Assembly (NCBI GenBank): GCA_004524535.1
Contig: SDNY01000001.1
Coordinates: forward strand, 37,146 to 101,145
Reading direction: 5' to 3'
From: Promethearchaeota archaeon
GTDB taxonomy: Archaea; Asgardarchaeota; Lokiarchaeia; Sigyniarchaeales; SOKP01
DNA length: 64,000 bases
The translations under genes and the position numbers were made by a program. The first letter of the stretch is position 1. The number at the start of each line of letters is the position of its first letter. Shown piece after piece: positions 1 to 22,551 of this stretch. The notes below the pieces were generated by a model. It was not told the origin of the DNA. It saw nothing but the letters and a program-made list of their open reading frames with translations, and ran no database searches.

Positions 1-19
1 GAGTTTAGACGAATTCATA

Positions 20-826
20 ATGGATTGGCTTAGAGATCACGGACAAGCTCATAAGTTGGATGATCAATTTGCGAAAATGAGAAAGGACCCTGCTGGAAGA
101 ATTTATATGCCAATAACTTATCATGGAGCAAAATTTGCCATAAAATGCGGTTTAACACCAAATAAAGTTTCTTATATAAATTTAATTTTATCATTTCTTA
201 TATTTTATGGGGTAATAATGGCTAGTCGGGGCCATACACTTGATTTATTTACTCAACAGCCATATTATGGTGTTTGGTTTATTCCTCTTGCTTTTTTGGC
301 TTTATTTACAGGAATTATTGATGGGATTGATGGAGCAATAGCTAGATTAACAGAAACAAAGTCTAGAGCTGGTGCTTGGTTAGATAATGTGATTGATAGA
401 ATTAGTGATATATTATTATTAGTATGTCTAGTTCCAACCAGCTTTCTCGTCTTTCCTGAATATGGACTTGACTTTACATGGATAATTTGGACGAATATTT
501 TTCTAATTTTTCTTTATGAATACATGAGATCCAGACATGAAGGTTTAGGTTTGCATGAGGCGAAACCATTTGTGGGTGAAAGAATAACTCGTTTTTTTAT
601 TATCTTTACATTTTTTCTAATTTATGGCATTTCGAGTTTCTTTATATTAATTACTAATTGGATCGATCCCTCTGCTACTAAAATCTGGGCACATTCTCAT
701 GGTGGAACAATAAAATGGAATATGCTAATTTTTCAAATCAATTTATTATTGATTATGGTCTTTTCATCAATTAAATTAGCACAATATAGTTTGAAAAACC
801 TAAAAAAATTGGATGGAATCAAATAA
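20..826 (+). CDS. CDP-alcohol phosphatidyltransferase family protein (polar-lipid head-group transferase)
   Basis: Exact family motif DGAIARLTETKSRAGAWLDNVID (D-G-x2-A-R-x8-G-x3-D-x3-D) plus several hydrophobic helices. The frame is open back to base 2, so the true 5' end may lie upstream of the window. Confidence 0.8.
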   Translation: MDWLRDHGQAHKLDDQFAKMRKDPAGRIYMPITYHGAKFAIKCGLTPNKVSYINLILSFLIFYGVIMASRGHTLDLFTQQPYYGVWFIPLAFLALFTGIIDGIDGAIARLTETKSRAGAWLDNVIDRISDILLLVCLVPTSFLVFPEYGLDFTWIIWTNIFLIFLYEYMRSRHEGLGLHEAKPFVGERITRFFIIFTFFLIYGISSFFILITNWIDPSATKIWAHSHGGTIKWNMLIFQINLLLIMVFSSIKLAQYSLKNLKKLDGIK

Positions 827-864
827 TTTATAAGAGGTTTTAAATCATAAATTTCAGAAGTTTT

Positions 865-2196
865 TTGTATACCGTTATTTTAGTAATTTATTTTATTCTT
901 TTACATATCTATTTTCCACCTTTTTTATCAGCAGGAACGAAAAACGCAATTGATACCTTCATTAGTAATCCTTTAACCTATTGGTGGTTTATATTTCCAT
1001 TAATTGGACTAATCACATTATTGATCTTGATCATTTATTATGGAAGATGTTTCTTATCTTCATTTGGGCGTGGTTATCGAACTAAAAAACCCTATAATGC
1101 TAAAATAAGTATACTAATTGCATCTAAAAATGAAAAAACATTATTAGATAGAACATTAAATTCCATTCTCGCATCAGATTATCCAAAAGAAGACATTCAA
1201 ATAATTATTATTACAAGTGGTTCAACAGATGGTACCACTGATTATTCTAACAATTTTGCCAAAGAAAATAGTTCAATTGATATAGAAGTATTATCTGAGA
1301 ATCTACCTAAAAAAGGAAAACCTCCAGCATTGAATTATGGACTTAAATACGTAAAAAATGATATCGTTGTTCTTTATGATTCTGGTTGCATTTTAGAACA
1401 GAATACATTAAGAAATTTAATATCACCATTTCAAAAAGAAAAAAATAATGCAGTTATAGGGCCTGTCCTTGTTAAAAATTGGAAGATCAATAAATTAACC
1501 AGAGCGCTTTTCCTTGACTATGCTTTTTTATCTGGTGGAGGATTATTATTTGAAACGAAAAACAGATTAGGTAAATCTGCTTATTCATTCGGACGAAATT
1601 TTGCCGTAAGAACTAAACACTTAAGAAAATCTGGAGGATTTAACGAAGATTCAATGACAGAAGATCTCTATCTTTCTGTAGTTCTAAATTTAGATGGGAT
1701 TAAAATTCTATTTTCTCCTAAAGCAAAAGTCTATGAATATGTACCAAGTACTTGGGAGATCCTAAAAAAACAACGTACAAGATGGGTTGCTGGATATATT
1801 TATGATATGCCACAATTAATGGAAATGAAAAGCGAAGAAAAAGATGGCAAAAAAATTATAATCGATAGAAATATGACGATGATGCTTTTAGGAAATATAG
1901 ATGCTTGGATTCCAATATTCATTGGATTCGCAATATTTTTCTTTCTTATCGGCGAGTGGTATCTATTAAGTTGGTTTCTTTCCTGTTTAATCTTTCAATT
2001 TGGCTTTTTATTTAAAGCCGTACGAAAATATGGCGATAATCATTTTAGTATTTTGTTTTGGTGGCCAATAAGCGCTTATATTCACCTCTATATGTTTCTA
2101 CGTCAATTCAGTTTGCCAAAAGAAATCAGCTGGGATAAAACTCCAATGATTTTAGAAAAGCAAGAAGAAGAAGTTAAAGCTCTATCGACTAAATAG
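865..2196 (+). CDS. Membrane-bound family 2 glycosyltransferase, processive (cellulose/chitin-synthase-like) type
   Basis: N-terminal TM helices, then ISILIASKNE...IIIITSGSTDGT (GT-A DxD region), LYDSGC, TEDLYLS and the Q(R/Q)xRW motif as QRTRW. C-terminal TM helices follow. Apparent TTG start. Confidence 0.8.
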   Translation: MYTVILVIYFILLHIYFPPFLSAGTKNAIDTFISNPLTYWWFIFPLIGLITLLILIIYYGRCFLSSFGRGYRTKKPYNAKISILIASKNEKTLLDRTLNSILASDYPKEDIQIIIITSGSTDGTTDYSNNFAKENSSIDIEVLSENLPKKGKPPALNYGLKYVKNDIVVLYDSGCILEQNTLRNLISPFQKEKNNAVIGPVLVKNWKINKLTRALFLDYAFLSGGGLLFETKNRLGKSAYSFGRNFAVRTKHLRKSGGFNEDSMTEDLYLSVVLNLDGIKILFSPKAKVYEYVPSTWEILKKQRTRWVAGYIYDMPQLMEMKSEEKDGKKIIIDRNMTMMLLGNIDAWIPIFIGFAIFFFLIGEWYLLSWFLSCLIFQFGFLFKAVRKYGDNHFSILFWWPISAYIHLYMFLRQFSLPKEISWDKTPMILEKQEEEVKALSTK

Positions 2197-2198
2197 CC

Positions 2199-3068
2199 TT
2201 AATACATTACTTTATTATATTTCTTCTTTTTTTTGAACGACCTGTCGAAGATTGATTTTCTATTATCTTTTTTCCATTTTAAACGATTACGCCAGCGTTC
2301 AATAGCTTCCAAAGGAAATCCAAGATTCTTTTTGCGCAGAAAAAAATTAAAAAAACCAAGTAAAAGAAAAGCAATAATCACACTAAGAGCTAGTAGTACA
2401 ATATCAATTACAAAAATTTTTATATAGCTTAAGTAAAAATAAAGAAAATAAATAGAAATTAATGTATTTGATAATAATAGAATATGCATTAAGTCTGTCA
2501 TTTTATTGGTTTTAAATTTTTTTCTTTTGCTTATCCCATGAATCCCAAATTGGAAATTTATAAAAATTGTAAAAAAGGCGAATATATATAGAATTAACGA
2601 AATTTGAGAAATCAAACACGAAATTTGATAATAATACGAAAAAGGAAAAAGTGGAGTTAGATATATAAAATAACGCTCTTTATAGATGGAAAAATGATAG
2701 AGAAAAATGTTTATCATTGCAAAATCGATCGCAATAGCACAAACCGGAGCGGTTTTTGCTGGATTTGAATCAAGCACATGAAGTAAAAAAATAAAGACAT
2801 ACATAGAAAACATAGCTAAGAAAAGATTCAAGAATAAAAGAGTTGAGAATGACATTGAAAAAACAATTTCTTCTATTGATGGAATATCTGTTCTAGTAGG
2901 TAACCTAGGATCGGAAAACTTTGGGTGAAGATAAACCTCAAGAAACCAGGAAAATTCAAGAAAAATCATAAAAATTGTTAATGTCAGAAATAATTGAACC
3001 TGAAATATAAAAGCAGTCCAATTTTTTACTTTATTTTTTTTTTTAGAGCTAATATTTTCCTTTTTCAT
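2199..3068 (-). CDS. Hypothetical polytopic membrane protein with Lys-rich termini
   Basis: Long ORF with about 7 hydrophobic segments. No recognisable catalytic motif. Confidence 0.5.
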   Translation of the reverse strand: MKKENISSKKKNKVKNWTAFIFQVQLFLTLTIFMIFLEFSWFLEVYLHPKFSDPRLPTRTDIPSIEEIVFSMSFSTLLFLNLFLAMFSMYVFIFLLHVLDSNPAKTAPVCAIAIDFAMINIFLYHFSIYKERYFIYLTPLFPFSYYYQISCLISQISLILYIFAFFTIFINFQFGIHGISKRKKFKTNKMTDLMHILLLSNTLISIYFLYFYLSYIKIFVIDIVLLALSVIIAFLLLGFFNFFLRKKNLGFPLEAIERWRNRLKWKKDNRKSIFDRSFKKKKKYNKVMY

Positions 3069-3207
3069 TTGTCTTATTCAGCTTGATATTAAAAGAAAAA
3101 ATTAAACTTTCATGATTTCTATATTAATATTAAGTAATTCTATATTTTTAAAAATTAATCAATATTGAATTTTTTTAAATCTCAAAATAGTAACCATTAA
3201 ACTTCTC

Positions 3208-4542: not shown

Positions 4543-4612
4543 GGGAGCTCTATTTTGATAAGATTAATAATAACAAAATAACTATTAAGGTTAATTAAGG
4601 AGTATATTAATA

Positions 4613-6058
4613 ATGAAAATCAATCTCATTAACGCTGCGCCTTCAAAGATTAAGGATGGTCAATTTGAGACATTATTTTATGCTTCTGCTCCTCCTTTAG
4701 GATTATTATACCTTGCTACATATTTAAAAGATAAAGGTCATAAAATCTCTATTTTAGATCAAGCAGCTGTTAATTATGAAAATAGTGATGTAATTGACTG
4801 GGTCAAAAAAGCAGATCCAGATGTAGTAGGGTTTTCAGTTATCTGCGCATCTATAGATAATACTAAAATAATCTCTAAAACATTAAAAAGTTGGAATCCA
4901 AATCTGAAAATCATTTTTGGTAATTATCTCTCAACATTCTATGCAAGAAAAATCTTAGAAAACTATGACTGGGTAGATATTTGTGTGAGAGGGGATGGTG
5001 AAATGATATTTTCAGAGCTTATTGAAAAAATCGAATTGAATAATGATTTCAATGAAGTCGATGGAATAACGTACAAGTACAATAGTAAAATTAGAGAGAA
5101 TCAGAATCGTCGATTATTAAAAAACCTTGACATATTACCGTTTCCTGATCGTAAATTGATCCCAAATATCTATAAGAATCGAATCGGTGGAATTGATGTT
5201 TCACCACGAAAATTTACTACGATGGTTTCTTCTCGAGGATGCCCTTTTGGATGTAATTTCTGCGCATGTACAGCATTTTCTCAAGGCGTTTGGAGAACTC
5301 GATCTGTAAATAATATCTTTGAAGAGATTTGTGAATTATCAAATCAAGGTTTTCAAGAAATACTTTTTGTTGATGATAATTTCACATTGAATATGAAAAG
5401 AATCGTCGAGCTATGTAATAAAATTATGAAAGAAAAACTGGATATGGTATTTGTATGTGATGGAAGAGTAAACAATAGCTCTATTAATTTACTAAGAACT
5501 ATGAAAAAAGCAAAATTTGAAATTATAATGTTTGGATTAGAAAGTAGTTCTCAAAGAATGTTAGATTTTTATAATAAAAGAATAACACCACAGATGAGCA
5601 AAACTGCTGTAAAAAATGCGCGTAAAGCGGGTTTTAAGATGATAGTTGGGTCATTTATGATTGGTGGATTTGATGAAACCTATACTGAGGCAATCAATAC
5701 TCTTAGATTTATTTCAAAACTCGATATTGATTTCCCTCATATAATTTTTACTCGAGCATTACCTGGAACTCAACTTTTTAATAGTATGATTCAAAAAAAT
5801 ATTATTGATGAAAATCAATATTGGGAAAGGGGCGTAGATTTAATTGATTTACCTGGAGCAAAAATGAAACGGGACGTAATTTTTAAAATAATAAAAGAAC
5901 AATTCCATCTAAATTTTTTCAGACCTAAATATTTAGTTAAGGCTTTATTACGAACATTAACAAGTAAATATAGACAAGAAATGTTTTCAAGTCATCTAAA
6001 TTTTCGTGATATAGATAAATTTATTAAATTAATCAATAATCCACCTGATTTATTTTAA
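4613..6058 (+). CDS. Cobalamin-binding (class B) radical SAM protein
   Basis: N-terminal B12-binding-like Rossmann region (PPLGLLYLATYLKDKGHKISILD) followed by SSRGCPFGCNFCAC (CxxxCxxC) and a FGLESSS radical-SAM core. Confidence 0.85.
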   Translation: MKINLINAAPSKIKDGQFETLFYASAPPLGLLYLATYLKDKGHKISILDQAAVNYENSDVIDWVKKADPDVVGFSVICASIDNTKIISKTLKSWNPNLKIIFGNYLSTFYARKILENYDWVDICVRGDGEMIFSELIEKIELNNDFNEVDGITYKYNSKIRENQNRRLLKNLDILPFPDRKLIPNIYKNRIGGIDVSPRKFTTMVSSRGCPFGCNFCACTAFSQGVWRTRSVNNIFEEICELSNQGFQEILFVDDNFTLNMKRIVELCNKIMKEKLDMVFVCDGRVNNSSINLLRTMKKAKFEIIMFGLESSSQRMLDFYNKRITPQMSKTAVKNARKAGFKMIVGSFMIGGFDETYTEAINTLRFISKLDIDFPHIIFTRALPGTQLFNSMIQKNIIDENQYWERGVDLIDLPGAKMKRDVIFKIIKEQFHLNFFRPKYLVKALLRTLTSKYRQEMFSSHLNFRDIDKFIKLINNPPDLF

Positions 6059-6084
6059 GGAGTAATTTATTGAGTGAGATATAA

Positions 6085-7590
6085 TTGAAAATTGCATTAA
6101 TTAATCCAAGTTTAGAGGAAAAGATCTATTCTCCGTGGCCTCCTTTAGGGATCCTTTATTTAGGAACAATATTAACAGAGAATGGGTTTACAGTTGAATT
6201 ATTAGATGCGGCAGCAAAGTTTTATGGAAAAAATGATGTATTAAACTGGATTAAACGGGTAAAACCCGATATAGTTGGTATATCCGTCTTTACAGTAGCA
6301 TTTTTACCCGTAATTAATCTAATTAAAGTAATCAAAGACTGGAATCCTTCTATAATAATCGTGCTGGGGCATTATCACCCTACTATGGAGGCAGAGAATA
6401 TACTTCGCAAATATGGGGATTATGTTGACTACTGCGTGAGAGGGGAAGGAGAATATACCTTTTTAGAATTATGTGAATTTTTAGATAAGAATATTAATAA
6501 TTTACCAAATGATATTAAGGGGCTTGCGTTTCAATATTCTAATAAGAAAATTATCTTAACTCCAGATGCTCCTTTAATAACCGATTTAGATGATCTTCCT
6601 TTTCCAGATAGAAAATTACTTGATTTTAATTATAAATGGAATTTTTCTGGATTTGAATTTTCAAAATCAAAGATTACTTCAATCATTTCTTCTCGAGGGT
6701 GTCCATTTAATTGTTCTTATTGTGCGTGTACTAAATTTGCAAAACGCCGATTTCGACCAAGAAGTCCTGAAAATATAGTAAATGAAATACTTTTAGTAGC
6801 AGATCAAGGGTATTCGCAAATAAACTTTGTTGATGATAACTTCACTTTACAACCAAAAAGAACAATAAAGATTTGTCAATTAATAAAAAAAGAGAAAATT
6901 GATATTTACTGGCATACGGATGGTCGAGTTGACCAAACTTCTCAAGATATGTTGAAACAGATGAAAAAAGCCGGATGCAAATCAATATGGTTTGGATTTG
7001 AAAGTGCAAATCAGCGGATACTGAACCTCTATAATAAAAGAACTAAAGTGTCTCAATTCTATGAAGCTATTCGTAAAACACGGAAAGCAAATATTGAATT
7101 AATTGTTGGATTATTTATGCTTGGCGCTCCCACAGAGACGATTGCTGAAGTTAAAAATACAATAAAATTTGCTGTAGATTCTGATATTGATGTTCCCTTT
7201 TTCAATGTTGTTGAGATTTTTTCAGGAACAAAATTTTGGGATGATTATAATTCTAACGGAATAATTAATCAATATGATAACGTAAAAGCTTTAGTAGGTA
7301 CAGAAATCCAAGAAGCCGAACGATGGGAAACAACAACCAGAGTGATGGATTTCCTATTATCTCCAGAAGAACGAGAAAAAATGTTAATTGAAATCCAAAA
7401 TGCATACCAAACATTTTTTTCTTTTGAGAGAAAGATGATATTTTTATGGAAGATGCTCTATAGAACAGTAAGAAGTAAATTTATGCTAAATATGGCATAT
7501 AACATTGTGAGAAATTTTAAAGAAGCTTTTGGAGCTATATCAGCATTCAGGAATTCTAAACCTCGAGGTTTTGGGACATATGATGAGTAA
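6085..7590 (+). CDS. Cobalamin-binding (class B) radical SAM protein
   Basis: PPLGILYLGTIL..GF.VELLD, then SSRGCPFNCSYCAC. The TTG start is supported by N-terminal MKIALINP homology to its neighbours. Confidence 0.85.
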   Translation: MKIALINPSLEEKIYSPWPPLGILYLGTILTENGFTVELLDAAAKFYGKNDVLNWIKRVKPDIVGISVFTVAFLPVINLIKVIKDWNPSIIIVLGHYHPTMEAENILRKYGDYVDYCVRGEGEYTFLELCEFLDKNINNLPNDIKGLAFQYSNKKIILTPDAPLITDLDDLPFPDRKLLDFNYKWNFSGFEFSKSKITSIISSRGCPFNCSYCACTKFAKRRFRPRSPENIVNEILLVADQGYSQINFVDDNFTLQPKRTIKICQLIKKEKIDIYWHTDGRVDQTSQDMLKQMKKAGCKSIWFGFESANQRILNLYNKRTKVSQFYEAIRKTRKANIELIVGLFMLGAPTETIAEVKNTIKFAVDSDIDVPFFNVVEIFSGTKFWDDYNSNGIINQYDNVKALVGTEIQEAERWETTTRVMDFLLSPEEREKMLIEIQNAYQTFFSFERKMIFLWKMLYRTVRSKFMLNMAYNIVRNFKEAFGAISAFRNSKPRGFGTYDE

Positions 7591-7648
7591 AAGTATTGCA
7601 TTTCATTATTAGAGATTATAATAGAAAACTTAATAATAATAAAAAAAA

Positions 7649-9088
7649 ATGAAGATTGCTTTAATTTTTCCAGTTCCAATGGATCTGCAACGAGAAGATC
7701 CAAGGCCTATGTTTTCAAGTTTTGCTGAACCTCTAGGATTATTATATATCGCGGGGGTTTTAATGGAGCATGGATATGATGTATCGATTTTAGATCATGG
7801 AGCAACAAATTATACTTTCGAAGATGTATTAAATTGGATAAAAAAACAGAATCCGGATATTCTAGGTATTTCTGTTCTAACAAGATCTTTTCAATCTGGA
7901 ATAACAATAGCGAAGTTAGCAAAAGATTGGAATCCAAGTCTTACTATAATTTTAGGTAATTATCAAACTGTCTGCGCTGAAAAGATATTAAATAAGTATA
8001 ATTTCATAGATTTTTGTGTTCGAGGTGAAGGTGAATACACAATGCAAGAATTATTACCTTTGATTCGAAAAAATAACACCGATTACGAGAGTATTAAAGG
8101 AATCTATTATAGAAAAAATGGAATTGTCAAATCAACTATGCCTCGTGTATTAGAAAAGGATCTTGATAGGTTTCCAATTCCAGACCGTACATTAATTAAG
8201 GGAGCTAGATACAAGATGTCTATGGGAGGATTAGAGCTTTCTAAAGCAAAATCGGGAACTATTATGATGAGCCGAGGATGTCCTTATCAATGCCGGTTCT
8301 GTTCAGTTAATCATGAGAGTTGGCGACATAGATCAGCTGATAATGTTATTCAAGAATTACATCTCTTGGAATCTCAAGGATATCGAGAAATTATGATTAT
8401 GGATGATAATTTTACCATAAATCCCAAATGGGTAATTGAAATATGTAAAAAAATTATAAAAGAAAAAATCGATCTTATTTTTCATTGCGAAGCCAGAATT
8501 GAAGGAACTAAGGAAATGTATGAATATATGAATAGGGCTAATGTTAAGACTATTTTTTATGGAATGGAGAGTGGTAGTCAACGTGTATTAGACTATTATC
8601 AGAAAAACATAACCCCTTCTCAAAGCAAATTGGCGTTAAAAAAAGCCCGTAGCGCTGGTATTGATATGCTATTTGCTTCATTTATCATTGGGGCGCCTAT
8701 CGAAAAAATTAGTGATATACAAAAAACTGTAAATTTTGCGCTAAATTTAGATATTGATTATGCTATGTTTCACATATTTGAAGTGTTTCCTGGTATTCAA
8801 ATATGGGATGAATTAGTTGAACAAAATAAGGTGGACGAGGAAAAACACTGGGAAACTGGCGTTCGAGTAGCTGAGCTTCCATTTTATAATATCGAACTGG
8901 AATTTTTAATAGATGTAATAAGAAGAACATATAGAAAATTCTATTCAATATCAAGACCAAAATTTCTTTTCACACAATTTCTTAGGTCATTAAAAAGTCA
9001 ATATCGTCGTAATAAATTGAGAGATTTCGGTAAAGATTTTCGATCTTCCATAAGGATGTTGGATTCTTTGAGCGAAAAACGATTTTAA
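7649..9088 (+). CDS. Cobalamin-binding (class B) radical SAM protein
   Basis: EPLGLLYIAGVLMEHGYDVSILD, then MSRGCPYQCRFCSV. Third member of the tandem trio. Confidence 0.85.
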   Translation: MKIALIFPVPMDLQREDPRPMFSSFAEPLGLLYIAGVLMEHGYDVSILDHGATNYTFEDVLNWIKKQNPDILGISVLTRSFQSGITIAKLAKDWNPSLTIILGNYQTVCAEKILNKYNFIDFCVRGEGEYTMQELLPLIRKNNTDYESIKGIYYRKNGIVKSTMPRVLEKDLDRFPIPDRTLIKGARYKMSMGGLELSKAKSGTIMMSRGCPYQCRFCSVNHESWRHRSADNVIQELHLLESQGYREIMIMDDNFTINPKWVIEICKKIIKEKIDLIFHCEARIEGTKEMYEYMNRANVKTIFYGMESGSQRVLDYYQKNITPSQSKLALKKARSAGIDMLFASFIIGAPIEKISDIQKTVNFALNLDIDYAMFHIFEVFPGIQIWDELVEQNKVDEEKHWETGVRVAELPFYNIELEFLIDVIRRTYRKFYSISRPKFLFTQFLRSLKSQYRRNKLRDFGKDFRSSIRMLDSLSEKRF

Positions 9089-9093
9089 TTTTG

Positions 9094-9564
9094 TTAATAA
9101 TGAGTGATAAGTACTGTACACAGTCCTATTGCATTTAAAATAATCCCAAATATTCCAAGAACGCCTCCCTCATCTCCTGCCTTTTTAATATATCCTTTTG
9201 AAAGAATTCCTAAAGTTAATCCTCCACTATGAAGTGTTATCATCACTGTCAGAACAGTAGCTCTCCATCGATAATATTTCAGTGTCCATAAATCTGGTCT
9301 TGTAAGTAGAAATATTGGACCAATTAAAATTAAACTTAATAATCCTATAAGAAAAGATGATATTGCAAAGAGAGAATACAATGTTGAATAGAACCCTCCT
9401 TTCTTGTAAGACATCTGGTACAGTGCACTAGCTTTTGATGTATTTTGGGTGCTCTCAGGTCTTATTTGAGGAAATATAGAAGAGATTAGATTTTCTTTAC
9501 CACAGTTATGGCAAAACTTCTGATTTGGATTATTTAATTCTGTACCACAATTAGCACAATACAT
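9094..9564 (-). CDS. Zinc-ribbon membrane protein
   Basis: N-terminal MYCANCGTEL...KFCHNCG double-CxxC ribbon, then 3-4 TM helices. Paralogue of the next gene. Confidence 0.6.
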   Translation of the reverse strand: MYCANCGTELNNPNQKFCHNCGKENLISSIFPQIRPESTQNTSKASALYQMSYKKGGFYSTLYSLFAISSFLIGLLSLILIGPIFLLTRPDLWTLKYYRWRATVLTVMITLHSGGLTLGILSKGYIKKAGDEGGVLGIFGIILNAIGLCTVLITHY

Positions 9565-10321: not shown

Positions 10322-11416
10322 TTAAAATTTCTTATCAACTTCTTCCTTTTCTGATTCAGTTAGTTGTCGCACTACTTTAGCGGGAGAACCAAAAGCAATT
10401 GAATATGGTGGAATATCCTCAGACACAACTGAATTAGATCCAATAATCGATCCTCGACCAATGGTAACACCAGGTAATACAAGTGAATAAGCACCAATTC
10501 TTGCATTTTCACACACTTTAATAGGTCCGAAACTGAAGCTTCCATGTTTTATATGCATTGCATTATGAGTTAATAGTTTTACACCAATCCCACATCCACT
10601 ACCATCTTCAAATTCAATTAATTCAGGTAAAAGTGGATCAGGTATAGCCTTTTGAGAAATATGGCAATTTCTTCCGATTTTCATCCCTAAAAATCGAAAT
10701 AATTTGTTTCTAGCACGTGGCCACCCAGCTAAATAGGTGACAAGTAAGGAGAATAAATGATTAAATGCACCCCTTACAAACCATGAAACAGAAAAACCCC
10801 TACTCTGTAGGTATTTTGCAATGATTAACATTGGGATAGGTGTGAAGAGATATTCATCAGTTTCAATATTAACATATGTTATTTTCCCCTTAACTTCAAT
10901 TTCAAATTTAGGTCTTTTATGCTTCCAAATTTTTTTCGCTTTGTTCAAATCCTTCAAAAAGATATAGAAATCCACTATTACTATGATTAGGATTAAACTC
11001 AATACAAAATTGATAGGTAAAAAGAGCAAACATAACATTAGCCTTGTATTAAGAGCTAGATTTTTATTAAATAATATACTAAAATGGGCATAATAAATTA
11101 CAAAGAAGGTAACTACTACAAATCCTAGCAAACTGGAGACATATATTCGTGAACCAAACAATTGCTTTGATTTTGCGATGTTATATCCTAAAACATAAAA
11201 TAGAAGAAAAACTGCATAAGCAATAATAACACCCCCATATATAAACATACTATATTCATAGAAAACAAATGATAACCCAAATACTATATAAATATAAATT
11301 TCATCCATCCATGTAATTGAAAAGAATATTCGATGTATTACAAGCAGAATAACAAATATAACGTTGGAGAGTAACAATAGAAATGAAATAATAAATCCTT
11401 TCTTCATATTTTCCAA
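10322..11416 (-). CDS. Membrane-anchored hexapeptide-repeat (left-handed beta-helix) acyl/acetyltransferase
   Basis: About 160 aa of TM helices, then a C-terminal LbH region (ARIGAYSLVLPGVTIGRGSIIGSNSVVSEDIPPYSIAFGSPAKVV). Confidence 0.7.
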   Translation of the reverse strand: MENMKKGFIISFLLLLSNVIFVILLVIHRIFFSITWMDEIYIYIVFGLSFVFYEYSMFIYGGVIIAYAVFLLFYVLGYNIAKSKQLFGSRIYVSSLLGFVVVTFFVIYYAHFSILFNKNLALNTRLMLCLLFLPINFVLSLILIIVIVDFYIFLKDLNKAKKIWKHKRPKFEIEVKGKITYVNIETDEYLFTPIPMLIIAKYLQSRGFSVSWFVRGAFNHLFSLLVTYLAGWPRARNKLFRFLGMKIGRNCHISQKAIPDPLLPELIEFEDGSGCGIGVKLLTHNAMHIKHGSFSFGPIKVCENARIGAYSLVLPGVTIGRGSIIGSNSVVSEDIPPYSIAFGSPAKVVRQLTESEKEEVDKKF

Positions 11417-12287: not shown

Positions 12288-13478
12288 CTATAATTTAAAT
12301 GCACTTGAATTAAATAAAGAACTGCAACCTTTTCCAATTGAGGGGGTTAATCGTCCCATTATTCTAAAAATAGCACCTTCTCTACCGCATTCGGGACATT
12401 TATCCCAGTTTTCTACTTGAGCAAGATCATCTAATAATACAGCTACACCGGCATAATTATCTACTCCATAGGGTGTTATTAGTTCTAAAATTCCAGTCTC
12501 TCCTGTCTTTCTTATTGACTCTAAAGTATCTTTATCACGGATTACAATTCTACCTTTGTTTTTGTCAACATGGAGTATAAAATCGTTATATTTTTTTGAC
12601 CAATGACCTCCACATGCTAATGGACTTTCAGTAGCAGCAAAATTATCACAGAATTTGTCCGGCGTAATATTGAACATATCACACATTTTTTCAATAAATT
12701 CTGGTTTTTCAACCTGATATCCAATTATAACTCGACCTTTGGTTCCATCCCAACCTCCACCTCCAGTAATAATATTAAAATGACCACTCATATCGAAGGT
12801 TCTTTTTTCTTTTTCATAATAATCACTTAAGACTCTATGCATCCATATCGGAGAATTGGCCATAATTGTTGGAATTTTATTCTTCTCTACCCGATTGAGT
12901 TCTTTTTTTAAATCTTTACCACTAATCCCAATAGCAGCTCTCATTTTACCTGTTTTAAAAAAATTCTTGAGTGTATGACCCAAAAAGAATTGTAATAAAA
13001 AGCTAACATGCTTTCCCTCCCATATATCAACAACAGCCTTATACAAAAGATATGCGTTCTTTTCATAGAATTTGTGTCTTATTGAGTTAATCATATATAA
13101 TTTTGGGGCAAACAGAATTAAATTGTTGATTTTGTCTTTGATTGAAAATGAATTAAAAACATCATTATAATTTGTTTTTAAAACTTCAAGATCGCTTTCA
13201 AGTCTACCAACAACACTAGGATCTCCTGAAGTTGAGGAAGATTCCAACCAAAAGTCCAATTTTTCGAAAGTGTTCCCTCGTAATAATTCTTTAAATTTGT
13301 CATTAGATTTTTTGAAATACACCCACGGTATATATGGTATTTCACCAAGATTAGATTCATTTAAAATCGTATTGAAATCATATTCAACTTCATTACAACG
13401 GTCCTTATATATCTTACAATCCTTTGCAGTTTCCTTTACAATATTTGATAAATCTTCATAAAATCCGTTTGAACTCAT
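12288..13478 (-). CDS. LuxE/PaaK-like adenylate-forming enzyme, second copy
   Basis: SSSTSGDPS, GGGGWDGTKG, CPECGREGAIFRIMGRLTPSIGKGCSS. Collinear with 3208..4542. Confidence 0.6.
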   Translation of the reverse strand: MSSNGFYEDLSNIVKETAKDCKIYKDRCNEVEYDFNTILNESNLGEIPYIPWVYFKKSNDKFKELLRGNTFEKLDFWLESSSTSGDPSVVGRLESDLEVLKTNYNDVFNSFSIKDKINNLILFAPKLYMINSIRHKFYEKNAYLLYKAVVDIWEGKHVSFLLQFFLGHTLKNFFKTGKMRAAIGISGKDLKKELNRVEKNKIPTIMANSPIWMHRVLSDYYEKEKRTFDMSGHFNIITGGGGWDGTKGRVIIGYQVEKPEFIEKMCDMFNITPDKFCDNFAATESPLACGGHWSKKYNDFILHVDKNKGRIVIRDKDTLESIRKTGETGILELITPYGVDNYAGVAVLLDDLAQVENWDKCPECGREGAIFRIMGRLTPSIGKGCSSLFNSSAFKL

Positions 13479-13581: not shown

Positions 13582-14301
13582 TTAAACCTTGCTATGAATC
13601 CAGTCTAATATTTCTTCAACTTGCTTTCCCTCGAAACTATGTCCTCCATCTTTAATGAGTAAGTATCGATCCTTACTTAAATTGTATTTTTCTATTAATT
13701 TTTTTCCAGTTTTTTCGAATGGTACGTATACGTCCTTCATTCCATGAATAATGAATACCTTTTTTATGATCTCGTCATTTAAATGATATTTAGGCATGAG
13801 AAGTGTTTTTCCCTTCGTGACAAACCCTATAAATTTTTTGAACCAATAAGGTGCACTTAATTGTTCCTTAATTTTGCCTAAAATCCCTTTCCCTATTGAT
13901 ACTAAAGATTGGTTTTGTTTCTTTTTTCCTTCTTCCTCCAAAAAATCTTCAATTGAATACAATGAAGACATGGCAAAAACTAAATCAACTTTTGGATTTT
14001 GTATTCCAATTGTTAAGGATGCTACGGCACCCATACTATGACCAATTAAGATTACCCGATCTGGCCCTTTGTCTCTCTCCTCCATTTTGCTGATTGCTAC
14101 ATCAATTACATATTGAATATCACGGATTTGACTTTCAAGGTCTAATTGTGAACCTTTACTTTTACCAATCCCTCTCAGATCATAAGAAAATGTCGAATAT
14201 CCGTATTTTTCCTCTAACGGCTCACAATATTTTTCCGCATCGACAGTGTTGCCCCTTGATCCTGGAGCATAAATAATTAAATCTCTACCACAACCTGCCA
14301 T
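13582..14301 (-). CDS. Alpha/beta-fold hydrolase
   Basis: Nucleophile elbow GHSMGA, a late HGMKD and GGHSF. The frame stays open 63 nt (21 codons) upstream of the first ATG and encodes a typical FFKTKDGTLLHG strand. Confidence 0.75.
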   Translation of the reverse strand: MAGCGRDLIIYAPGSRGNTVDAEKYCEPLEEKYGYSTFSYDLRGIGKSKGSQLDLESQIRDIQYVIDVAISKMEERDKGPDRVILIGHSMGAVASLTIGIQNPKVDLVFAMSSLYSIEDFLEEEGKKKQNQSLVSIGKGILGKIKEQLSAPYWFKKFIGFVTKGKTLLMPKYHLNDEIIKKVFIIHGMKDVYVPFEKTGKKLIEKYNLSKDRYLLIKDGGHSFEGKQVEEILDWIHSKV

Positions 14302-14533: not shown

Positions 14534-15571
14534 ATGAATGTAGCCATAGTTCGAGATTGGATTTTTCAAATATTCAGATTTATCATAAAAAGCAAATTCT
14601 TAAATGAAAATCCTATAAAATACGATATTCTTCGGAAATTATTGTCCTACAGGATTACTAAAACACCAATTTCAATAATGGTGGAACCTATATGCCAATG
14701 CAATTTGAAATGTCCATTATGTACGACGCCCCATAAATATATGACAAGAGAAAAAGGGATGATGAGAATGGAAACATTTCAAAAATTACTTGATGATACA
14801 TACAGATTTGTGTTGCATTATGATTTTGATTTTGCAGGAGAGCCATTTCTTCATCCTCAACTTTTCAAAATGGTTCGACTCGCTTCGGATCGAGGGGTCT
14901 TCACAATTGTTGATTCAAATGGGACTCTAATTAATGATAGAAGAATTAATGAAATATTAGATTCGCGTCTAAATGTGCTTGCTGTAAACATTGATAATGC
15001 TAATCAAAGAACTTTCGAAGAATTTCGATTAGGAGCAGATTTCAATAAAACCATAGAACAGATTAAAAGATTATGTGAGAGAAAAAAAGAAGAGAAATTA
15101 ACTTTTCCATTCATAATTGCAGAGATTATTGTTAGCCGAGAAAATGAAAGAGAACTTCAAATTATTAATAATTTGGCCTTGAATGAGATTGGAGTTGATG
15201 CTGTGTTCTATAAAAGCATCTGCTTTCCACTACATTCAGATGGTTTTAGAAGAGATAATCCCGTTCAAGAGTTGGTAGATAAATATCTTCCGATAATAGA
15301 AAAAGTAAAAAAACGTTATAATATTGTCAATGGGGAATTAAAACTCAAAAATCCAACGTTTGAATGTAATTGGCGGAAAAAATCTCTAGTCTTATGGGAT
15401 GGAAGAGTTTCAGTATGTTGTTACGATTATGATGGACAATATACTTTTGGAAACGTGAATGAAGACCACTTTCTTGATATTTGGAATTCCCCTAAATATC
15501 GATATTACCGAGAAAAACTAATTTATAATAAAAAGCTTGCACTATGTAGAAGGTGTGCTTATAGCTTTTAA
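14534..15571 (+). CDS. Radical SAM protein with a Cys-rich SPASM/twitch-like C-terminal domain
   Basis: CQCNLKCPLC (CxxxCxxC) and a GEPFLHP motif. C-terminal cysteines: CNW...VCCYDYDG...CRRCAY. Confidence 0.75.
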   Translation: MNVAIVRDWIFQIFRFIIKSKFLNENPIKYDILRKLLSYRITKTPISIMVEPICQCNLKCPLCTTPHKYMTREKGMMRMETFQKLLDDTYRFVLHYDFDFAGEPFLHPQLFKMVRLASDRGVFTIVDSNGTLINDRRINEILDSRLNVLAVNIDNANQRTFEEFRLGADFNKTIEQIKRLCERKKEEKLTFPFIIAEIIVSRENERELQIINNLALNEIGVDAVFYKSICFPLHSDGFRRDNPVQELVDKYLPIIEKVKKRYNIVNGELKLKNPTFECNWRKKSLVLWDGRVSVCCYDYDGQYTFGNVNEDHFLDIWNSPKYRYYREKLIYNKKLALCRRCAYSF

Positions 15572-15583
15572 ATAGGCTCTCAA

Positions 15584-17449: not shown

Positions 17450-17660
17450 TTTTTATCTAACCTTATATTGATTAAAATAGATCCATCTTTAGCTTGTATT
17501 TACACTAAACAAATTTATTTAGAGCTAATACATAGAAGCAAGATTTCTCATTAAATTATTAGATTATATAATTAAAAGTGTGTTTTAAGTGATTCTTTTA
17601 ATAAAACTTAATAAAAATGAAAATAGTTTAATTTATATCTTAAATACGGCTGCTATAGTA

Positions 17661-18413
17661 ATGAAGATTGCTCTGACTTTTGATATTGAAAGAGATATTC
17701 CCAACGTTTTAGATATGTATATCGGAGCAAAAGTTGGATTGTTGAAAATACTAGAAATATTAGAAAAATTCACAATTAAAGGGACTTTTTTTTGTACTGG
17801 AAATGTAGTTGAGAAAATACCTGAGTATATAAAATTAATAGAGCGAAAAGGTCATGAAATTGCATGTCATAGCTTTAACCATGAAAGATTAAACCATTTA
17901 AATTTTAAAAAGTGTCAAGAAATAATTTATCAGAATAAAAAGATAATTGAGAGTATCTGTCAAAAATCAAAAATTGTTGGTTTTCGAGCCCCTCATTTAA
18001 AACCTCCAAAATTTCTATTCAAAGTATTAAATAATTTAGGATTCAAATATGATTCTTCAATTAAAACCCCAAAGAAATTGATTTATTTCCAAAAAGAAAA
18101 ATATCAAATTCAAGAATTTCATCCTTCAAATCTGAACATTCTTTTTAGATTACCTATGGGTTCTTCTTTTTTAAGAAAATGGACATATCGAAATGAATTA
18201 GTTGTATTATGTTTTCATCCATGGGAAGCAATAGATGTAAAATCTTTATTTTTTAATAATAAAAACTTATTGGATATCATTAAAAATATTATTTTTAGAC
18301 CAGATCGGGTAGGAAATACAGGAGATGTGTTTATTAGCAGAATTGAAAACTTTATAGAGGAATCTCTATCCAAAGAAGCCGAATTTGTTAGTTTAAACCA
18401 ATTATTAATGTAA
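17661..18413 (+). CDS. Polysaccharide deacetylase (NodB/CE4-like)
   Basis: MKIALTFDIERD, GTFFCTG and HEIACHSFNHERL (H-x4-H-like metal site). I chose the ATG at 17661; the ORF track begins at a GTG at 17589. Confidence 0.65.
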   Translation: MKIALTFDIERDIPNVLDMYIGAKVGLLKILEILEKFTIKGTFFCTGNVVEKIPEYIKLIERKGHEIACHSFNHERLNHLNFKKCQEIIYQNKKIIESICQKSKIVGFRAPHLKPPKFLFKVLNNLGFKYDSSIKTPKKLIYFQKEKYQIQEFHPSNLNILFRLPMGSSFLRKWTYRNELVVLCFHPWEAIDVKSLFFNNKNLLDIIKNIIFRPDRVGNTGDVFISRIENFIEESLSKEAEFVSLNQLLM

Positions 18414-18441
18414 AGAGTTTGATTAATTAATTTTAATTTTT

Positions 18442-19902: not shown

Positions 19903-20141
19903 GTTATTTAGTCTCTAGAATTAATTCTTTGTTAACATTGTATTTTAATATGATGTAAAGATATTAATAACTTTTTTTCCTTGATTTTAAATCATAATTA
20001 GAAATAAGTGATCAGATAATGAAAAAACTTTTAATATAAGTTCAATCAACAATATATATTGAATTATTTTAATAAATAATACAAAAATCCAATTATTAAG
20101 AAATCAAAAGGAGGAAGATTGAGTTAAGTGAATTATCATCA

Positions 20142-21038
20142 ATGATTAATAACGAAAAAGATAATATAAAATCTTTAATGATGCAAAAAAAGAAGGGGAA
20201 AGTTGTTAAACTTCTATTTAAACTTGCAGCAAATGTTAATGAAAACAATAAAATGGAATTCTACGATTTTTTCGGGGAATTGCTACATTATAATTGCGAT
20301 TATTTTACGGATTATGCATATTATCCTGTGATCCCGAAACTTAAAAAATACTTCATGGATAATCAATTATTAGAAATGGAGAAGTACCTAATAACTAAGT
20401 ATGCCTTGAGTTCTAAAGAAAATATCTTAGCTGCCTCTAATGCTGTTGCACTTATACATGAGGACAAAGTCGTTGGACGTGTGTATTTAACTAATATGAG
20501 AATGATTGCTGTTGGTCCATTGATAGAGAAAAAGAAAAGTGCAATGTCAATGACTCATGGGATAATTTTTGCGGCTATTGCATCAGGTAGAGATGCAAGA
20601 AGGAAGCGTATTCGAGAAGCTTTACGGCAAAATATAGATGAGGAGGATATATTATATTTTGGTCATCAAATACCCATTAATGAAACAACTAGAATCAAAA
20701 ATACTGGTGGTAAAATTGTATATGTAGCAAATCTTGAAATTGAGAAAAAGGGTAAGACGAGAATTAGAAGCTTCAAAATACAGGTTGTTCCAAAGCCAAT
20801 GAAAAAAGAGCCCGGCAAAGTTTTTAAAAGTAGAAGATTGCAATTCTTAAACACAGTTGAAGAGACACTACATTATTTAGAAAAAGGTTTCCCTGCTCAA
20901 ACTGGCGCACCTGTGAGTTCTTCTTCAACTATTACGCCTGATGCAAATAAAGGTTCATTTTGTCCATTTTGCGGTAAGGAAGTCAATAAAGATTTAAAAG
21001 TTTGTGAAAATTGTGGAAGTTCTATAGTAAAAGATTAA
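20142..21038 (+). CDS. Hypothetical protein with C-terminal zinc ribbon
   Basis: C-terminal FCPFCGKEV...VCENCGSSI. The central GRVYLTNMRMIAVG is faintly GRAM/PH-like, which is weak evidence. Confidence 0.45.
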   Translation: MINNEKDNIKSLMMQKKKGKVVKLLFKLAANVNENNKMEFYDFFGELLHYNCDYFTDYAYYPVIPKLKKYFMDNQLLEMEKYLITKYALSSKENILAASNAVALIHEDKVVGRVYLTNMRMIAVGPLIEKKKSAMSMTHGIIFAAIASGRDARRKRIREALRQNIDEEDILYFGHQIPINETTRIKNTGGKIVYVANLEIEKKGKTRIRSFKIQVVPKPMKKEPGKVFKSRRLQFLNTVEETLHYLEKGFPAQTGAPVSSSSTITPDANKGSFCPFCGKEVNKDLKVCENCGSSIVKD

Positions 21039-21102
21039 CCAATTTTCACAAAATAGAAAAAACCTTATATACTTTTTATAAAATCTTTTTTTTTTTTCAT
21101 TT

Positions 21103-22551
21103 TCATTTTGAAATGATTTCACGTAAAAATGGATCGTATCCTATAGTATCTTTTCTGCTGATTGCTTTGTCAATTACTTTTCTAAAAATTTTAAAGAAAA
21201 TATTTTCAAATCCCGCGCTAAAAACTTCCTTTTTCCATCTAAAATATGCAGGATGTCTAATCAATTTAAATATTGGCACGTTATTGGATTCAAAAACTTT
21301 CCTTCCAACGATTGCACTAGTAATTGAAATCATTTCAAGATAATTTTTATGTTTAATATAGTCTGGAGCGCATTCTCTCCTAATTTTTGCCCAACTAAGA
21401 AGATTAGATGGGGGGGTAAATCCCATTTTTATAGCATGGTCGTAAACTGCTGTTTTAGGATAAGGAAAAAGAATCTTTATTGAAAATTCGCAATTAGGGC
21501 TAATTTCTTTAATTTTCTTGATGATAGCTATTGTTTTTCTTATATCATTTTTAGTTTCACCTGGTATACCAATCATCCAGCTATAATCGGCAATTATATC
21601 TAAATCCTGAGTAATTTTGGCGCTATTAATTATATCTTTTATAGAAATGTTTTTATTCAAGATATTTAATACACGTTGAGAGCCTGATTCTGGTCCAAAA
21701 TACATTTGACTACATCCATGTTCTCTTGCTTCTTTAGCTAATTTATAATTTACTTGATCAACACGCAAATCCGCTTTCCATTTAATATCATGCTCTTTAA
21801 AGTAATTAAAAAGTTCTTTTATTCGGTTTAAATTTGCAAAGAAATTATCGTCATAAAAAGTAAATTTCTCAGCACCAAAATCCAATATTTTATCAAATTC
21901 TTTAAAACACTTCTCAGAAGACCATCCTCTCCAAACATTATTAAAAAGAGCATTATAGCAAAATGCACAGTTAAAAGGACAACCACGACTGGTAATTAGG
22001 TTGAAATTACCATTTTTTAAATATCGTATAGGATTTATTAAATGCCAAGGTACACTCAATTCATTTACTTCAGAATTCTTTAAAATTGTATTGTCAGGAT
22101 TATGAATAATTCTATTACCATTTTTTAGTGAAAGACCTTTTATTTGGGTTTTTTTTTTACCACTTACCAACTCATGATAAGATCTTTCACCTTCTCCTCG
22201 AATAACAAAATCTATTAAATTATTTCGCAGTGTTTGACCTGGAAGAATAGTCGAATGAATGCCTCCCCATACTATTTTAATTTTAGGAAAGTCTTTCTTT
22301 ATAGATTTACAAAATTTCAAAGCTTGAAAAATTTGTGGCCCTGTCATTACTGAAACGCCAATGTATTCAGGTTCATTAATGGAAATAGTATCCTTTACTT
22401 GATTAAGTGAGTCAAATCGTAAATCGAAGATTTTTACATCTATATTTCGTTTAATCAGATAATCAGTGATAAATAAAATAGAATAAGGAGGAGTAGGGAT
22501 TTGAGTCTTAGCAAATTCAAGCTGTGGATAAATTAAAATTGTATGCTTCAT
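21103..22551 (-). CDS. Cobalamin-binding (class B) radical SAM protein
   Basis: B12-like N-terminal domain, then TSRGCPFNCAFCYN and FGPESGSQR. Confidence 0.85.
   Translation of the reverse strand: MKHTILIYPQLEFAKTQIPTPPYSILFITDYLIKRNIDVKIFDLRFDSLNQVKDTISINEPEYIGVSVMTGPQIFQALKFCKSIKKDFPKIKIVWGGIHSTILPGQTLRNNLIDFVIRGEGERSYHELVSGKKKTQIKGLSLKNGNRIIHNPDNTILKNSEVNELSVPWHLINPIRYLKNGNFNLITSRGCPFNCAFCYNALFNNVWRGWSSEKCFKEFDKILDFGAEKFTFYDDNFFANLNRIKELFNYFKEHDIKWKADLRVDQVNYKLAKEAREHGCSQMYFGPESGSQRVLNILNKNISIKDIINSAKITQDLDIIADYSWMIGIPGETKNDIRKTIAIIKKIKEISPNCEFSIKILFPYPKTAVYDHAIKMGFTPPSNLLSWAKIRRECAPDYIKHKNYLEMISITSAIVGRKVFESNNVPIFKLIRHPAYFRWKKEVFSAGFENIFFKIFRKVIDKAISRKDTIGYDPFLREIISK

Follow-up and report, generated by a model that had tools for sequence, protein, structure and literature searches.

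The first 22,551 nucleotides of a 64,000-nucleotide stretch of a Promethearchaeota archaeon genome (contig SDNY01000001.1; the whole stretch is called the window here) bring together about 20 genes, including enzymes of lipid head-group and polysaccharide synthesis and several radical S-adenosylmethionine (SAM) enzymes (rSAMs) with B12-binding domains. The question raised by this locus is whether its genes make one product or only share a neighborhood. Eukaryotes have no closer known relatives than the Asgard archaea, whose cell-surface chemistry is essentially unknown; a cluster kept across dozens of Loki-lineage species would be a testable handle on the Asgard envelope. Comparison with related loci makes it highly probable that the region is a true gene cluster for a glycoconjugate that rSAMs tailor. 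A phospho-glycolipid or lipoglycan anchored in the membrane is its most probable product. The complete statement, that a conserved Loki-lineage cluster assembles an envelope glycoconjugate in the cytoplasm and that this glycoconjugate is probably lipid-anchored, has in our judgment an even chance of being right. No paper on this cluster was found in the searchable literature library.

Conservation of the gene cluster

The genes that recur in related genomes form a triad, a divergent pair and a deacetylase gene:

1..826 (Pfam-supported open reading frame [ORF] 20-826), plus strand: CDP-alcohol phosphatidyltransferase (CDPOH), first triad gene; PF01066, 48.9 bits
865..2196, plus strand: synthase-type membrane family 2 glycosyltransferase (GT2a); PF13641/PF00535/PF13632
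3208..4542, plus strand: LuxE/PaaK-type adenylate-forming acyl-protein synthetase (LuxE1, locus tag EU529_00190), third triad gene; PF04443, 74.5 bits (gathering score 24.9)
10322..11416, minus strand: membrane hexapeptide (LbH) acetyltransferase (HexAT) with about four N-terminal transmembrane (TM) helices; PF00132
11495..12244, plus strand: soluble family 2 glycosyltransferase (GT2b); PF00535, 98.7 bits
17589..18413, plus strand: CE4 (NodB-homology) deacetylase (CE4); PF01522, 72 bits

Domain calls were made with Pfam and NCBIfam on the window proteins, and they recovered, with catalytic motifs intact, every enzyme listed in a preliminary description of this DNA at the coordinates given there. 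An alignment of LuxE1 homologs was used to scan one genome per prokaryotic species, which yielded 64 loci, all from Asgard metagenome-assembled genomes (MAGs; phylum labels are those deposited in the record titles). Every one of the 137 LuxE1 homologs that carried a source name was likewise from an Asgard MAG. A LuxE1 ortholog was present in 49 of the 64 loci (58-69% identity; 44% in one Hel MAG). The other 15 loci (L050-L064) carried a third LuxE/PaaK-type paralog, which is 31-38% identical to LuxE1 and comes from the same Asgard genomes; they served as control DNA (192 kb, 159 ORFs). Gene order was compared by tblastn and by de novo clustering of naively called ORFs, with flanks of up to 10 kb around each LuxE1 seed.

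The preliminary description held that scattered orthologs in relatives would speak against a functional island; instead, the genes were clustered in 49 species-level relatives. The order and strand of CDPOH(+)-GT2a(+)-LuxE1(+) were kept in 25 of the 31 loci of at least 18 kb. CDPOH orthologs (60-82% identity) were found in 36 loci and GT2a orthologs (65-78%) in 39, always directly 3' of CDPOH; in the window the two genes are on the same strand, 38 bp apart. At least seven different gene families lay directly upstream of CDPOH across the loci. HexAT orthologs (61-82% identity, 28 loci) always occurred as a HexAT(-)/GT2b(+) divergent pair, GT2b orthologs (63-82%) were detected in 24 loci, and CE4 followed the pair in 20, usually within a few kb. 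Of the 31 long loci, 13 contained the full set of six core families. Around the third LuxE paralog, cluster genes were nearly absent (HexAT/GT2b in L057 and a homolog of the membrane protein TM289 in L055). The most compact arrangement was that of a close relative (L065, 76-83% identity), in which nine genes are contiguous: GT2a-B12a-B12b-B12c, HexAT, GT2b-CE4 and B12d-B12e, the B12 genes being the B12-binding rSAMs described below.

The slot directly 3' of LuxE1 was variable and held at least nine gene families across genomes. Zn-ribbon/TM proteins followed LuxE1 in about 19 loci, a sulfotransferase in 14, a trio of membrane GT2, rSAM and alpha/beta-hydrolase in 20, and in others a second LuxE-type gene (LuxE2) or the B12a-b-c triplet (9 loci). 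UDP-galactopyranose mutase (Glf) adjoined GT2b in 13 loci. The pan-cluster thus adds a third membrane GT2 with C-terminal TM helices, Glf and a sulfotransferase to the genes seen in the window. We propose that the core genes are vertically inherited and that tailoring genes are swapped at a hotspot just downstream of LuxE1. The combination of a CDP-alcohol transferase, LuxE-type loaders and multiple cobalamin rSAMs has so far been seen in Asgard MAGs only. The preliminary description had suggested synthesis of a modified envelope glycolipid or polysaccharide. The clustering in 49 relatives and the glycan genes of the pan-cluster agree with this; the nature of the product is itself a proposal.

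By its composition the region is not foreign DNA. Its GC content is 0.301 vs. 0.286 in the adjacent 25 kb (about 29% for the window), and its tetranucleotide correlation is r = 0.990 vs. 0.984 for an internal yardstick, so the suggestion that its composition might differ from that of the genome was not borne out. No integrase or tRNA gene was found at its edges, and no tRNA or Rfam family in the 64-kb window. With its core present in 47 species-level genomes, the cluster is no obvious accessory or acquired element, and mosaic presence is confined to the tailoring genes.

Core enzymes and their site of action

The CDPOH gene product retains its motif (DGIDGAIAR...G...D...D at residue 101; pattern DGxDGxxAR..G..D..D). 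Its best NCBIfam relatives were archaetidylinositol-phosphate (AIP) and phosphatidylinositol-phosphate (PIP) synthases, all below cut-off (NF040950, 68 vs. 180 bits; NF045883, 46 vs. 170; NF052561, 63 vs. 350), and its best PDB relatives (AF2299, IPCT-DIPPS, and PIPS) are all enzymes that use inositol phosphate. At its 5' end the gene is cut by the left edge of the window, so that an N-terminal stretch of about 43 residues with one TM helix is missing, and frame 2 from nucleotide 2 reads SLDEFIMDWL, which matches CDPOH orthologs of about 311 residues with an extra N-terminal TM helix. Coordinate 1, given earlier as the start of the island, is therefore a window artifact and not a biological boundary. 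An additional B12-rSAM gene (f21) lies directly upstream of CDPOH in L007, L012, and L019 and three genes upstream in L032, so the rSAM-rich region may continue to the left of the window.

GT2a has a QRTRW motif at residue 303, two N-terminal TM helices and about two to three C-terminal ones. Its best NCBIfam match was PgaC/IcaA (TIGR03937, 103 bits vs. a cut-off of 422) and its best PDB match was 6yv7, a family 2 glycosyl transferase that we take to be an archaeal N-glycan mannosyltransferase. The closest PDB relative of GT2b was the dolichol monophosphate mannose synthase 5mlz; GT2b scored 94.6 bits on TIGR04283 (cut-off 182) and matched the AglJ and AglG models weakly.

The predicted structure of LuxE1 (AlphaFold2, mean predicted local distance difference test score [pLDDT] 82.8) has a PaaK-type ANL fold. 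Foldseek placed BT_0428, PaaK1/2, ClxA, and NatL2 at the top of its matches, with AjiA1 also among the close neighbors; there was no sequence match in the PDB. The P-loop (SSSTTGxPS) is conserved. Cys436 lies eight residues before the C-terminus, within a tail of pLDDT below 50, and is invariant in 14 diverse sequences. In Vibrio LuxE, Cys364 of the motif TRxxKGCxLS takes the acyl group from acyl-AMP, a self-acylation (PMC9157457). Cys436 parallels this residue, and by analogy its acylation is predicted. No LuxC/ALDH-like partner gene was found in the window cluster or the pan-cluster, so the acyl group would have to go elsewhere than to LuxC. LuxE1 and LuxE2 scored 46 and 27 bits, respectively, on the LuxE equivalog NF052244, below its cut-off of 550 bits.

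LuxE2 and a hydrolase gene lie downstream of GT2b:

12288..13478, minus strand: second LuxE/PaaK-type adenylating enzyme (LuxE2); PF04443, 64.5 bits (gathering score 24.9)
13582..14301, minus strand: alpha/beta hydrolase (ABH); PF12146/PF00561

LuxE2 is 33% identical to LuxE1, with orthologs of 72-74% identity in L033 and L044 and of 48-51% in L001, L002, L004, and L005. ABH orthologs (69-72%) lie between GT2b and CE4 in L007 and L019, and an analogous alpha/beta hydrolase (f8) was present in 19 loci.

The CE4 gene most likely starts at nucleotide 17661, since 20 of 20 orthologs begin with MKIAL-TFD. None of these 20 orthologs has a signal peptide or TM helix, and by this evidence CE4 is cytoplasmic. 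Its best PDB matches were 3rxz and 3qbu. Enzymes that depend on acetyl-CoA, ATP, or SAM act on the cytoplasmic side of the membrane. Because CE4 lacks targeting and membrane segments and HexAT, LuxE1, LuxE2, and the rSAMs need cytoplasmic cosubstrates, all tailoring is predicted to precede export, which is also the order in the Nod factor, glycosylphosphatidylinositol, lipid A, and HpnIJK pathways. A lipid-linked glycoconjugate is favored over a secreted polymer of the poly-N-acetylglucosamine (PNAG) type because the tailoring enzymes are all cytoplasmic.

The location of CE4 also bears on an alternative that we consider unlikely, a synthase-dependent exopolysaccharide of the PNAG or chitin-oligomer type. 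GT2a would polymerize and translocate N-acetylhexosamine (HexNAc), CE4 would partly deacetylate the chain, HexAT and the LuxE enzymes would acylate it, and CDPOH would add a phospho-alcohol or a primer. The PgaC/IcaA match, the QRTRW motif and the PgaC/NodC-like TM layout of GT2a fit such a system, as do a CE4 of the NodB/PgdA type and a GH113-like hydrolase in the cluster. The best NCBIfam match of CE4, an XrtA-system polysaccharide deacetylase, and a weak match of GT2a to an XrtG-associated glycosyltransferase also point this way. However, CE4 is cytoplasmic in all orthologs, unlike PgaB/IcaB, and the scores fall far under the equivalog cut-offs. The cluster lacks a partner resembling PgaD/IcaD as well as genes for export or chain length, the tailoring enzymes carry no signal peptide, and known PNAG systems have no place for a CDP-alcohol transferase, which here is tightly linked.

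Radical SAM enzymes of the cluster

Six rSAM genes lie in the cluster:

4613..6058, plus strand: B12-binding rSAM (B12a); PF02310 and PF04055, motif CPFGCNFC
6085..7590, plus strand: B12-binding rSAM (B12b); Pfam
7649..9088, plus strand: B12-binding rSAM (B12c); Pfam
14534..15571, plus strand: rSAM/SPASM enzyme (SPASM); PF04055 and PF13186
18442..19902, minus strand: B12-binding rSAM (B12d), a B12b paralog (45% identity); Pfam
21103..22551, minus strand: B12-binding rSAM of a distinct family (B12e); HpnJ is the top NCBIfam match, 151 vs. 578 bits

The B12-rSAMs at 4613, 6085, 7649, 18442, 21103, and 35577 (the last, B12f, lies outside the cluster) scored above the gathering scores of both PF02310 and PF04055, and the CxxxCxxC motif is kept in all seven rSAMs of the window. 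Five B12-rSAMs fall among the approximately 20 island genes vs. one in the remaining 41 kb. The unusual density noted earlier extended to the relatives: B12-rSAMs accounted for 59 of 764 ORFs around LuxE1 orthologs (0.69 per 10 kb, 11 distinct families) and for none of the 159 ORFs in the 192 kb around the third LuxE paralog (Fisher p = 1.8e-5). Of the 41 loci that span 12 kb or more, 39 contained some rSAM. The rSAMs thus behave like variable tailoring modules rather than core genes.

B12a, B12b, and B12c follow LuxE1 on the same strand with gaps of 70, 26, and 58 bp. The triplet was contiguous with LuxE1 in 9 loci and with GT2a in L065, 10 genomes in total (64-85% identity). B12a orthologs (64-85%; 80% in L065) lay directly after LuxE1 in the 9 loci, B12b orthologs were 56-87% identical, and B12c (68-83%) was always third of the triplet. 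B12a, B12b, B12c, and B12d are paralogs with only 37-45% mutual identity, so the triplet appears to hold old, separately conserved functions; B12e is 26-31% identical to these four. B12b and B12e, like LuxE1, are 100% identical to proteins of a Promethearchaeota (Loki) MAG in NCBI. The B12d ortholog of L065 (81%) adjoins B12e and CE4. On the HpnJ model (TIGR03471), B12a to B12e scored 148-173 bits vs. an equivalog cut-off of 577.6. B12b scored 213 bits on BchE and 170 on HpnJ, both below cut-off, and its best PDB matches were AprD4, TokK, OxsB, and CysS. GenK, an rSAM with a B12 domain, acts on a sugar-type substrate, and so does HpnJ (PMC13459092); AprD4 and OxsB, further B12-domain rSAMs of this kind, are among the PDB matches of B12b.

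B12e orthologs (57-82% identity) are widespread in Loki/Hel MAGs. In L020, L027, L042, and L049, B12e lies between GT2b and CE4 in the order GT2b-B12e-(f38)-CE4, and the compact block of L065 includes GT2b, CE4, and B12e. A strict partnership of B12e with GT2b and CE4, of the HpnJ kind, does not hold as a rule, since in L066 and L067 B12e is not linked to glycan genes. A convergent 160-residue ORF (f38), which is not in the window and had no Pfam or NCBIfam match, follows B12e in L020, L027, L032, L042, L049, L066, and L067, and so accompanies it even away from glycan genes. The SPASM gene had no ortholog in the related loci; the nearest protein was a recurrent cluster rSAM (f7, 24% identity).

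Proposed assembly of the glycoconjugate

From the gene content, conservation, enzyme localization and folds observed here, we infer substrates, an order of steps and a product as follows. CDPOH would make a phospho-polyol lipid anchor, the polyol being inositol-phosphate-like because the nearest CDPOH relatives use inositol phosphate. GT2a, presumably co-transcribed with CDPOH, would add at least one HexNAc to the anchor, and GT2b would extend or decorate the glycan; in other genomes the third GT2, a UDP-galactofuranose mutase and a sulfotransferase may contribute as well. Cytoplasmic CE4 would then strip N-acetyl groups. The LuxE enzymes would activate carboxylic acids with ATP, load them onto the C-terminal Cys and deliver the acyl group either to the amine freed by CE4 or to a hydroxyl, and HexAT would O-acetylate. 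The species-variable B12-rSAMs (here B12a to B12e) and SPASM would carry out C-methylation or other radical tailoring of sugar, polyol, or acyl parts. Predicted masses to seek include hexosamine-phospho-lipids with N-acyl groups and a +14 Da methyl series, and several uncharacterized B12-rSAM families gain a plausible sugar or head-group substrate. Even if the chemistry proves to be ordinary glycan decoration, the cluster can serve as a marker locus when Loki genomes are compared.

Four groups of known systems resemble parts of this scheme. The HpnI-HpnK-HpnJ pathway converts bacteriohopanetetrol (BHT)-N-acetylglucosamine to BHT-glucosamine and then to BHT cyclitol ether, with an rSAM remodeling the lipid-bound amino sugar (PMC13459092). 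As proposed here, a GT2 adds HexNAc to a membrane lipid, a cytoplasmic deacetylase follows and a B12-rSAM remodels the sugar; HpnJ as the top match of B12e, and the place of B12e between GT2b and CE4 in four genomes, extend the likeness. In contrast, the scores are low (29 vs. 310 bits for HpnI and 148-173 vs. about 578 for HpnJ), B12e is unlinked in some genomes, and the cluster has no hopanoid genes and includes four B12-rSAMs besides B12e, ligases of the LuxE type and a CDP-alcohol transferase. The deacetylase also differs, being a CE4 here, whereas HpnK belongs to the YdjC-type family.

Nod factor synthesis (NodC-NodB-NodA with NodL) likewise takes place in the cytoplasm before export and relies on a QxxRW membrane GT2, a CE4 of the NodB type, re-acylation of the freed amine and O-acetylation by a hexapeptide transferase. 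It differs in that no NodA-like match was found in the cluster, where a LuxE/PaaK-type enzyme would supply the acyl group, and in that scores on its models are low (NodC, 29.6 vs. 550 bits; NodB, 57.7 vs. 240). The present cluster is also archaeal, lacks a NodIJ exporter and contains a CDP-alcohol transferase and rSAMs.

The mycobacterial pgsA1-acyltransferase-pimA operon makes acylated phosphatidylinositol mannosides, the anchors of lipomannan and lipoarabinomannan, and in glycosylphosphatidylinositol (GPI) and glucosaminyl-archaetidylinositol synthesis N-acetylglucosamine is added and then de-N-acetylated. These systems share with the cluster the grouping of a PI/PIP-synthase-like CDP-alcohol transferase with a glycosyltransferase and acyl transfer. 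They use GT4 and PIG-L/LmbE enzymes where the cluster has GT2 and CE4, and to our knowledge they have no rSAMs. The AIP/PIP-synthase scores of CDPOH are 46-68 bits vs. cut-offs of 170-350, and no inositol-phosphate synthase gene lies near the cluster. The PNAG systems (pgaABCD/icaADBC) share a PgaC/IcaA-like GT2, a CE4 and O-acyl modification; here CE4 is cytoplasmic, PgaD/IcaD and PgaA are missing and lipid head-group and rSAM genes are added.

Among archaeal rSAMs, the calditol synthase Cds is a precedent for calditol formation (PMC13459092), and the B12-rSAM methylases Grs, Gmm, and Cgm/Pgm and the desaturase Ted tailor isoprenoid tails (bioRxiv 10.1101/2025.10.20.683597). Set beside the cluster by description, the latter are alike in being archaeal B12-rSAMs of paralogous families with divergent chemistry, but they act on isoprenoid tails and are not reported in glycan clusters (bioRxiv 10.1101/2025.10.20.683597). 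The only lipid-type NCBIfam signal among the rSAMs of the window (TIGR04072, 189 bits) is that of B12f, outside the cluster.

Evidence against the proposal and alternative readings

Several observations weigh against the proposed pathway. No cluster protein reached an NCBIfam equivalog cut-off, so names are given at the superfamily level only and the substrates are not established. The window cluster has neither a flippase nor an ABC exporter nor a sugar-nucleotide gene, and no myo-inositol-phosphate synthase or phosphatase was seen near it. In L065, B12a follows GT2a with no LuxE1 in between, so a substrate moiety shared by LuxE1 and the rSAMs is not required. B12-rSAMs were no rarer in the immediate flanks than in the core span (1.01 vs. 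0.49 per 10 kb), and 15 of 41 loci had no B12-rSAM within 10 kb. B12e occurs apart from glycan genes in two genomes, and out-group B12b homologs sit in housekeeping contexts. The sample is also biased, with small control DNA (192 kb) and loci seeded on LuxE1, and a cultured strain is named in none of the 64 locus titles.

Some of these points would be expected if there were no single pathway but a small conserved glyco-operon in a recombination hotspot that gathers unrelated rSAM genes, the rSAM density being a neighborhood effect. We regard this as improbable. The slot 3' of LuxE1, with its nine or more families that include an unrelated U32/ABBA-prenyltransferase/rSAM module, fits a hotspot, as do the frequency of B12-rSAMs in the flanks, the two genomes with unlinked B12e, the housekeeping neighbors of out-group B12b relatives and the absence of orthologs of SPASM and of two further genes (the PHP-GH113 fusion and Zn298) from related loci. 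Against it, B12a-b-c are always contiguous with LuxE1 or GT2a with short same-strand gaps, five B12-rSAMs are compacted with the glyco genes in L065, the enrichment over control DNA is significant and nearly all loci of sufficient length contain some rSAM. Out-group context was tried as a guide to the function of B12a to B12d and was uninformative: three homologs (41-45% identity) lay among ribosomal, tRNA-synthetase and other housekeeping genes.

A protein-glycosylation role, in which a dolichol-linked N- or O-glycan is built by the GT2s, decorated and then moved to surface proteins, is also quite improbable. The relation of GT2b to dolichol monophosphate mannose synthase, its weak AglJ and AglG matches and the 6yv7 match of GT2a are consistent with it, and genes typical of archaeal agl clusters occur in the relatives, namely Glf, a sulfotransferase and a GT2 whose TM helices are C-terminal. 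However, AglB, an initiating phosphosugar transferase and a flippase were found neither in the window nor in the pan-cluster, and a CDP-alcohol transferase is foreign to known agl pathways.

A cluster for a peptide that is made by ribosomes and modified after translation (RiPP) or for another small molecule, in which B12-rSAMs and SPASM modify a peptide that glycosyltransferases and acyl ligases decorate, was rejected as extremely improbable: the B12-rSAMs do score on RiPP models (ApyD, 135-161 bits; TIGR03975, about 63-112 bits), SPASM resembles peptide maturases and LuxE1 has structural neighbors (ClxA, NatL2, and AjiA1) that are presumably natural-product ligases, but every RiPP-model score is below cut-off, membrane lipid and glycan enzymes make up the conserved core, genes for a protease, for leader recognition, or for export are missing, and a region that is 93% coding with intergenic gaps of at most 239 bp has no precursor-peptide gene and no room for one, small ORFs in relatives not having been searched exhaustively.

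The lipid-anchored glycoconjugate can also be drawn more specifically, as a Loki-specific glycolipid head group. An inositol-phosphate-type lipid would receive N-acetylglucosamine, which would be de-N-acetylated in the cytoplasm, re-acylated by LuxE and C-methylated or ring-contracted by rSAMs to an aminocyclitol (HpnJ/AprD4-like); in its boldest version this lipid would be the anchor for an archaeosortase H encoded 40 kb away. We hold this more specific reading to be very improbable. If true, it would provide a lipid biomarker specific to the lineage and an Asgard counterpart to anchoring by GPI.

Other genes in and near the cluster

The neighborhood is completed by a hydrolase fusion and by five genes absent from the preliminary description, one for a 6-TM protein and four for small Zn-ribbon/TM proteins:

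2199..3068, minus strand: 6-TM membrane protein (TM289), between GT2a and LuxE1
9094..9564, minus strand: small N-terminal Zn-ribbon and TM protein (Zn156), 30% identical to Zn176; PF13240
9676..10206, minus strand: N-terminal Zn-ribbon protein with 3-4 TM helices (Zn176); PF13240
15584..17449, minus strand: PHP (CehA/McbA-like) metallohydrolase-GH113-like fusion (PHP-GH113); NF038032, 53 bits, residues 26-169; PF22612, 43 bits, residues 438-592
20142..21038, plus strand: C-terminal Zn-ribbon protein (Zn298); PF13240 at residues 273-294
22623..23141, minus strand: C-terminal Zn-ribbon protein (Zn172); PF13240

TM289 had no Pfam or NCBIfam match, and homologs of 36-54% identity were found in L019, L032, L043, and L055. 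Families homologous to Zn176 (f13 and f23) adjoin LuxE1 in about 19 loci. No ortholog of PHP-GH113 or of Zn298 was found in any related locus examined. Homologs of Zn172 (36-52% identity) adjoin CE4 in L010, L011, L030, and L040; Zn172 is likely the right end of the conserved neighborhood, which would then extend past position 22551, where the island had been taken to end.

A module seen in relatives and not in the window lies downstream of LuxE1 in L003, L009, L018, L025, L031, and L045 and upstream of CDPOH in L012. It combines a U32 peptidase and a small ORF with an ABBA aromatic prenyltransferase (PF11468, 176 bits), two B12-rSAMs and two rSAM-SPASM enzymes, which suggests prenylated-aromatic or quinone-type chemistry beside the glyco cluster. 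One of its proteins (f36) is 29% identical to the sixth B12-rSAM of the window:

35577..36848, minus strand: B12-binding rSAM (B12f), 23-25% identical to B12a to B12e and of a different family

The preliminary description had counted this gene with the island. It is present, but its family differs and nothing ties it to the cluster: its best NCBIfam match was a "lipid biosynthesis B12-binding/radical SAM protein" (TIGR04072, 189 vs. 360 bits), and its neighbors are a NERD-domain ORF and a Zn-ribbon ORF, with no glycan genes.

The remainder of the window contains the following features:

47989-48891, minus strand: MtrH-like methyltransferase adjoining the tandem array; PF02007, 203 bits
48998-62339, minus strand: tandem array of 9-10 paralogous ORFs of 437-455 residues, with 72-78% mutual identity
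62453-63559, minus strand: archaeosortase H; NF041736 equivalog, 334 vs. 200 bits, plus the ArtH N-terminal domain
32297-33712 and 38195-39133, minus strand: Gtr1/RagA/Arf-family small GTPases
27690-29333: ORF with a weak UFD1_N2 match

Archaeosortases process and lipid-anchor surface proteins. The archaeosortase H gene, about 40 kb from the cluster and directly adjoining the tandem membrane-protein array, is another envelope-biogenesis element. The array proteins are very hydrophobic and polytopic, mostly have TTG starts and have the lowest GC content of the window (0.23-0.25). They had no Pfam, NCBIfam, or PDB-profile match and an unusable AlphaFold2 model (pLDDT 45), and none of the 64 related loci contains them. 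Their first-loop motif (D-F-G-I-Y-Y..G..L..P..Y) loosely recalls, in our view, that of GT-C/GT87 enzymes. The first small GTPase has a weak N-terminal Folliculin-family match, and both look to us like Asgard "eukaryotic signature" proteins.

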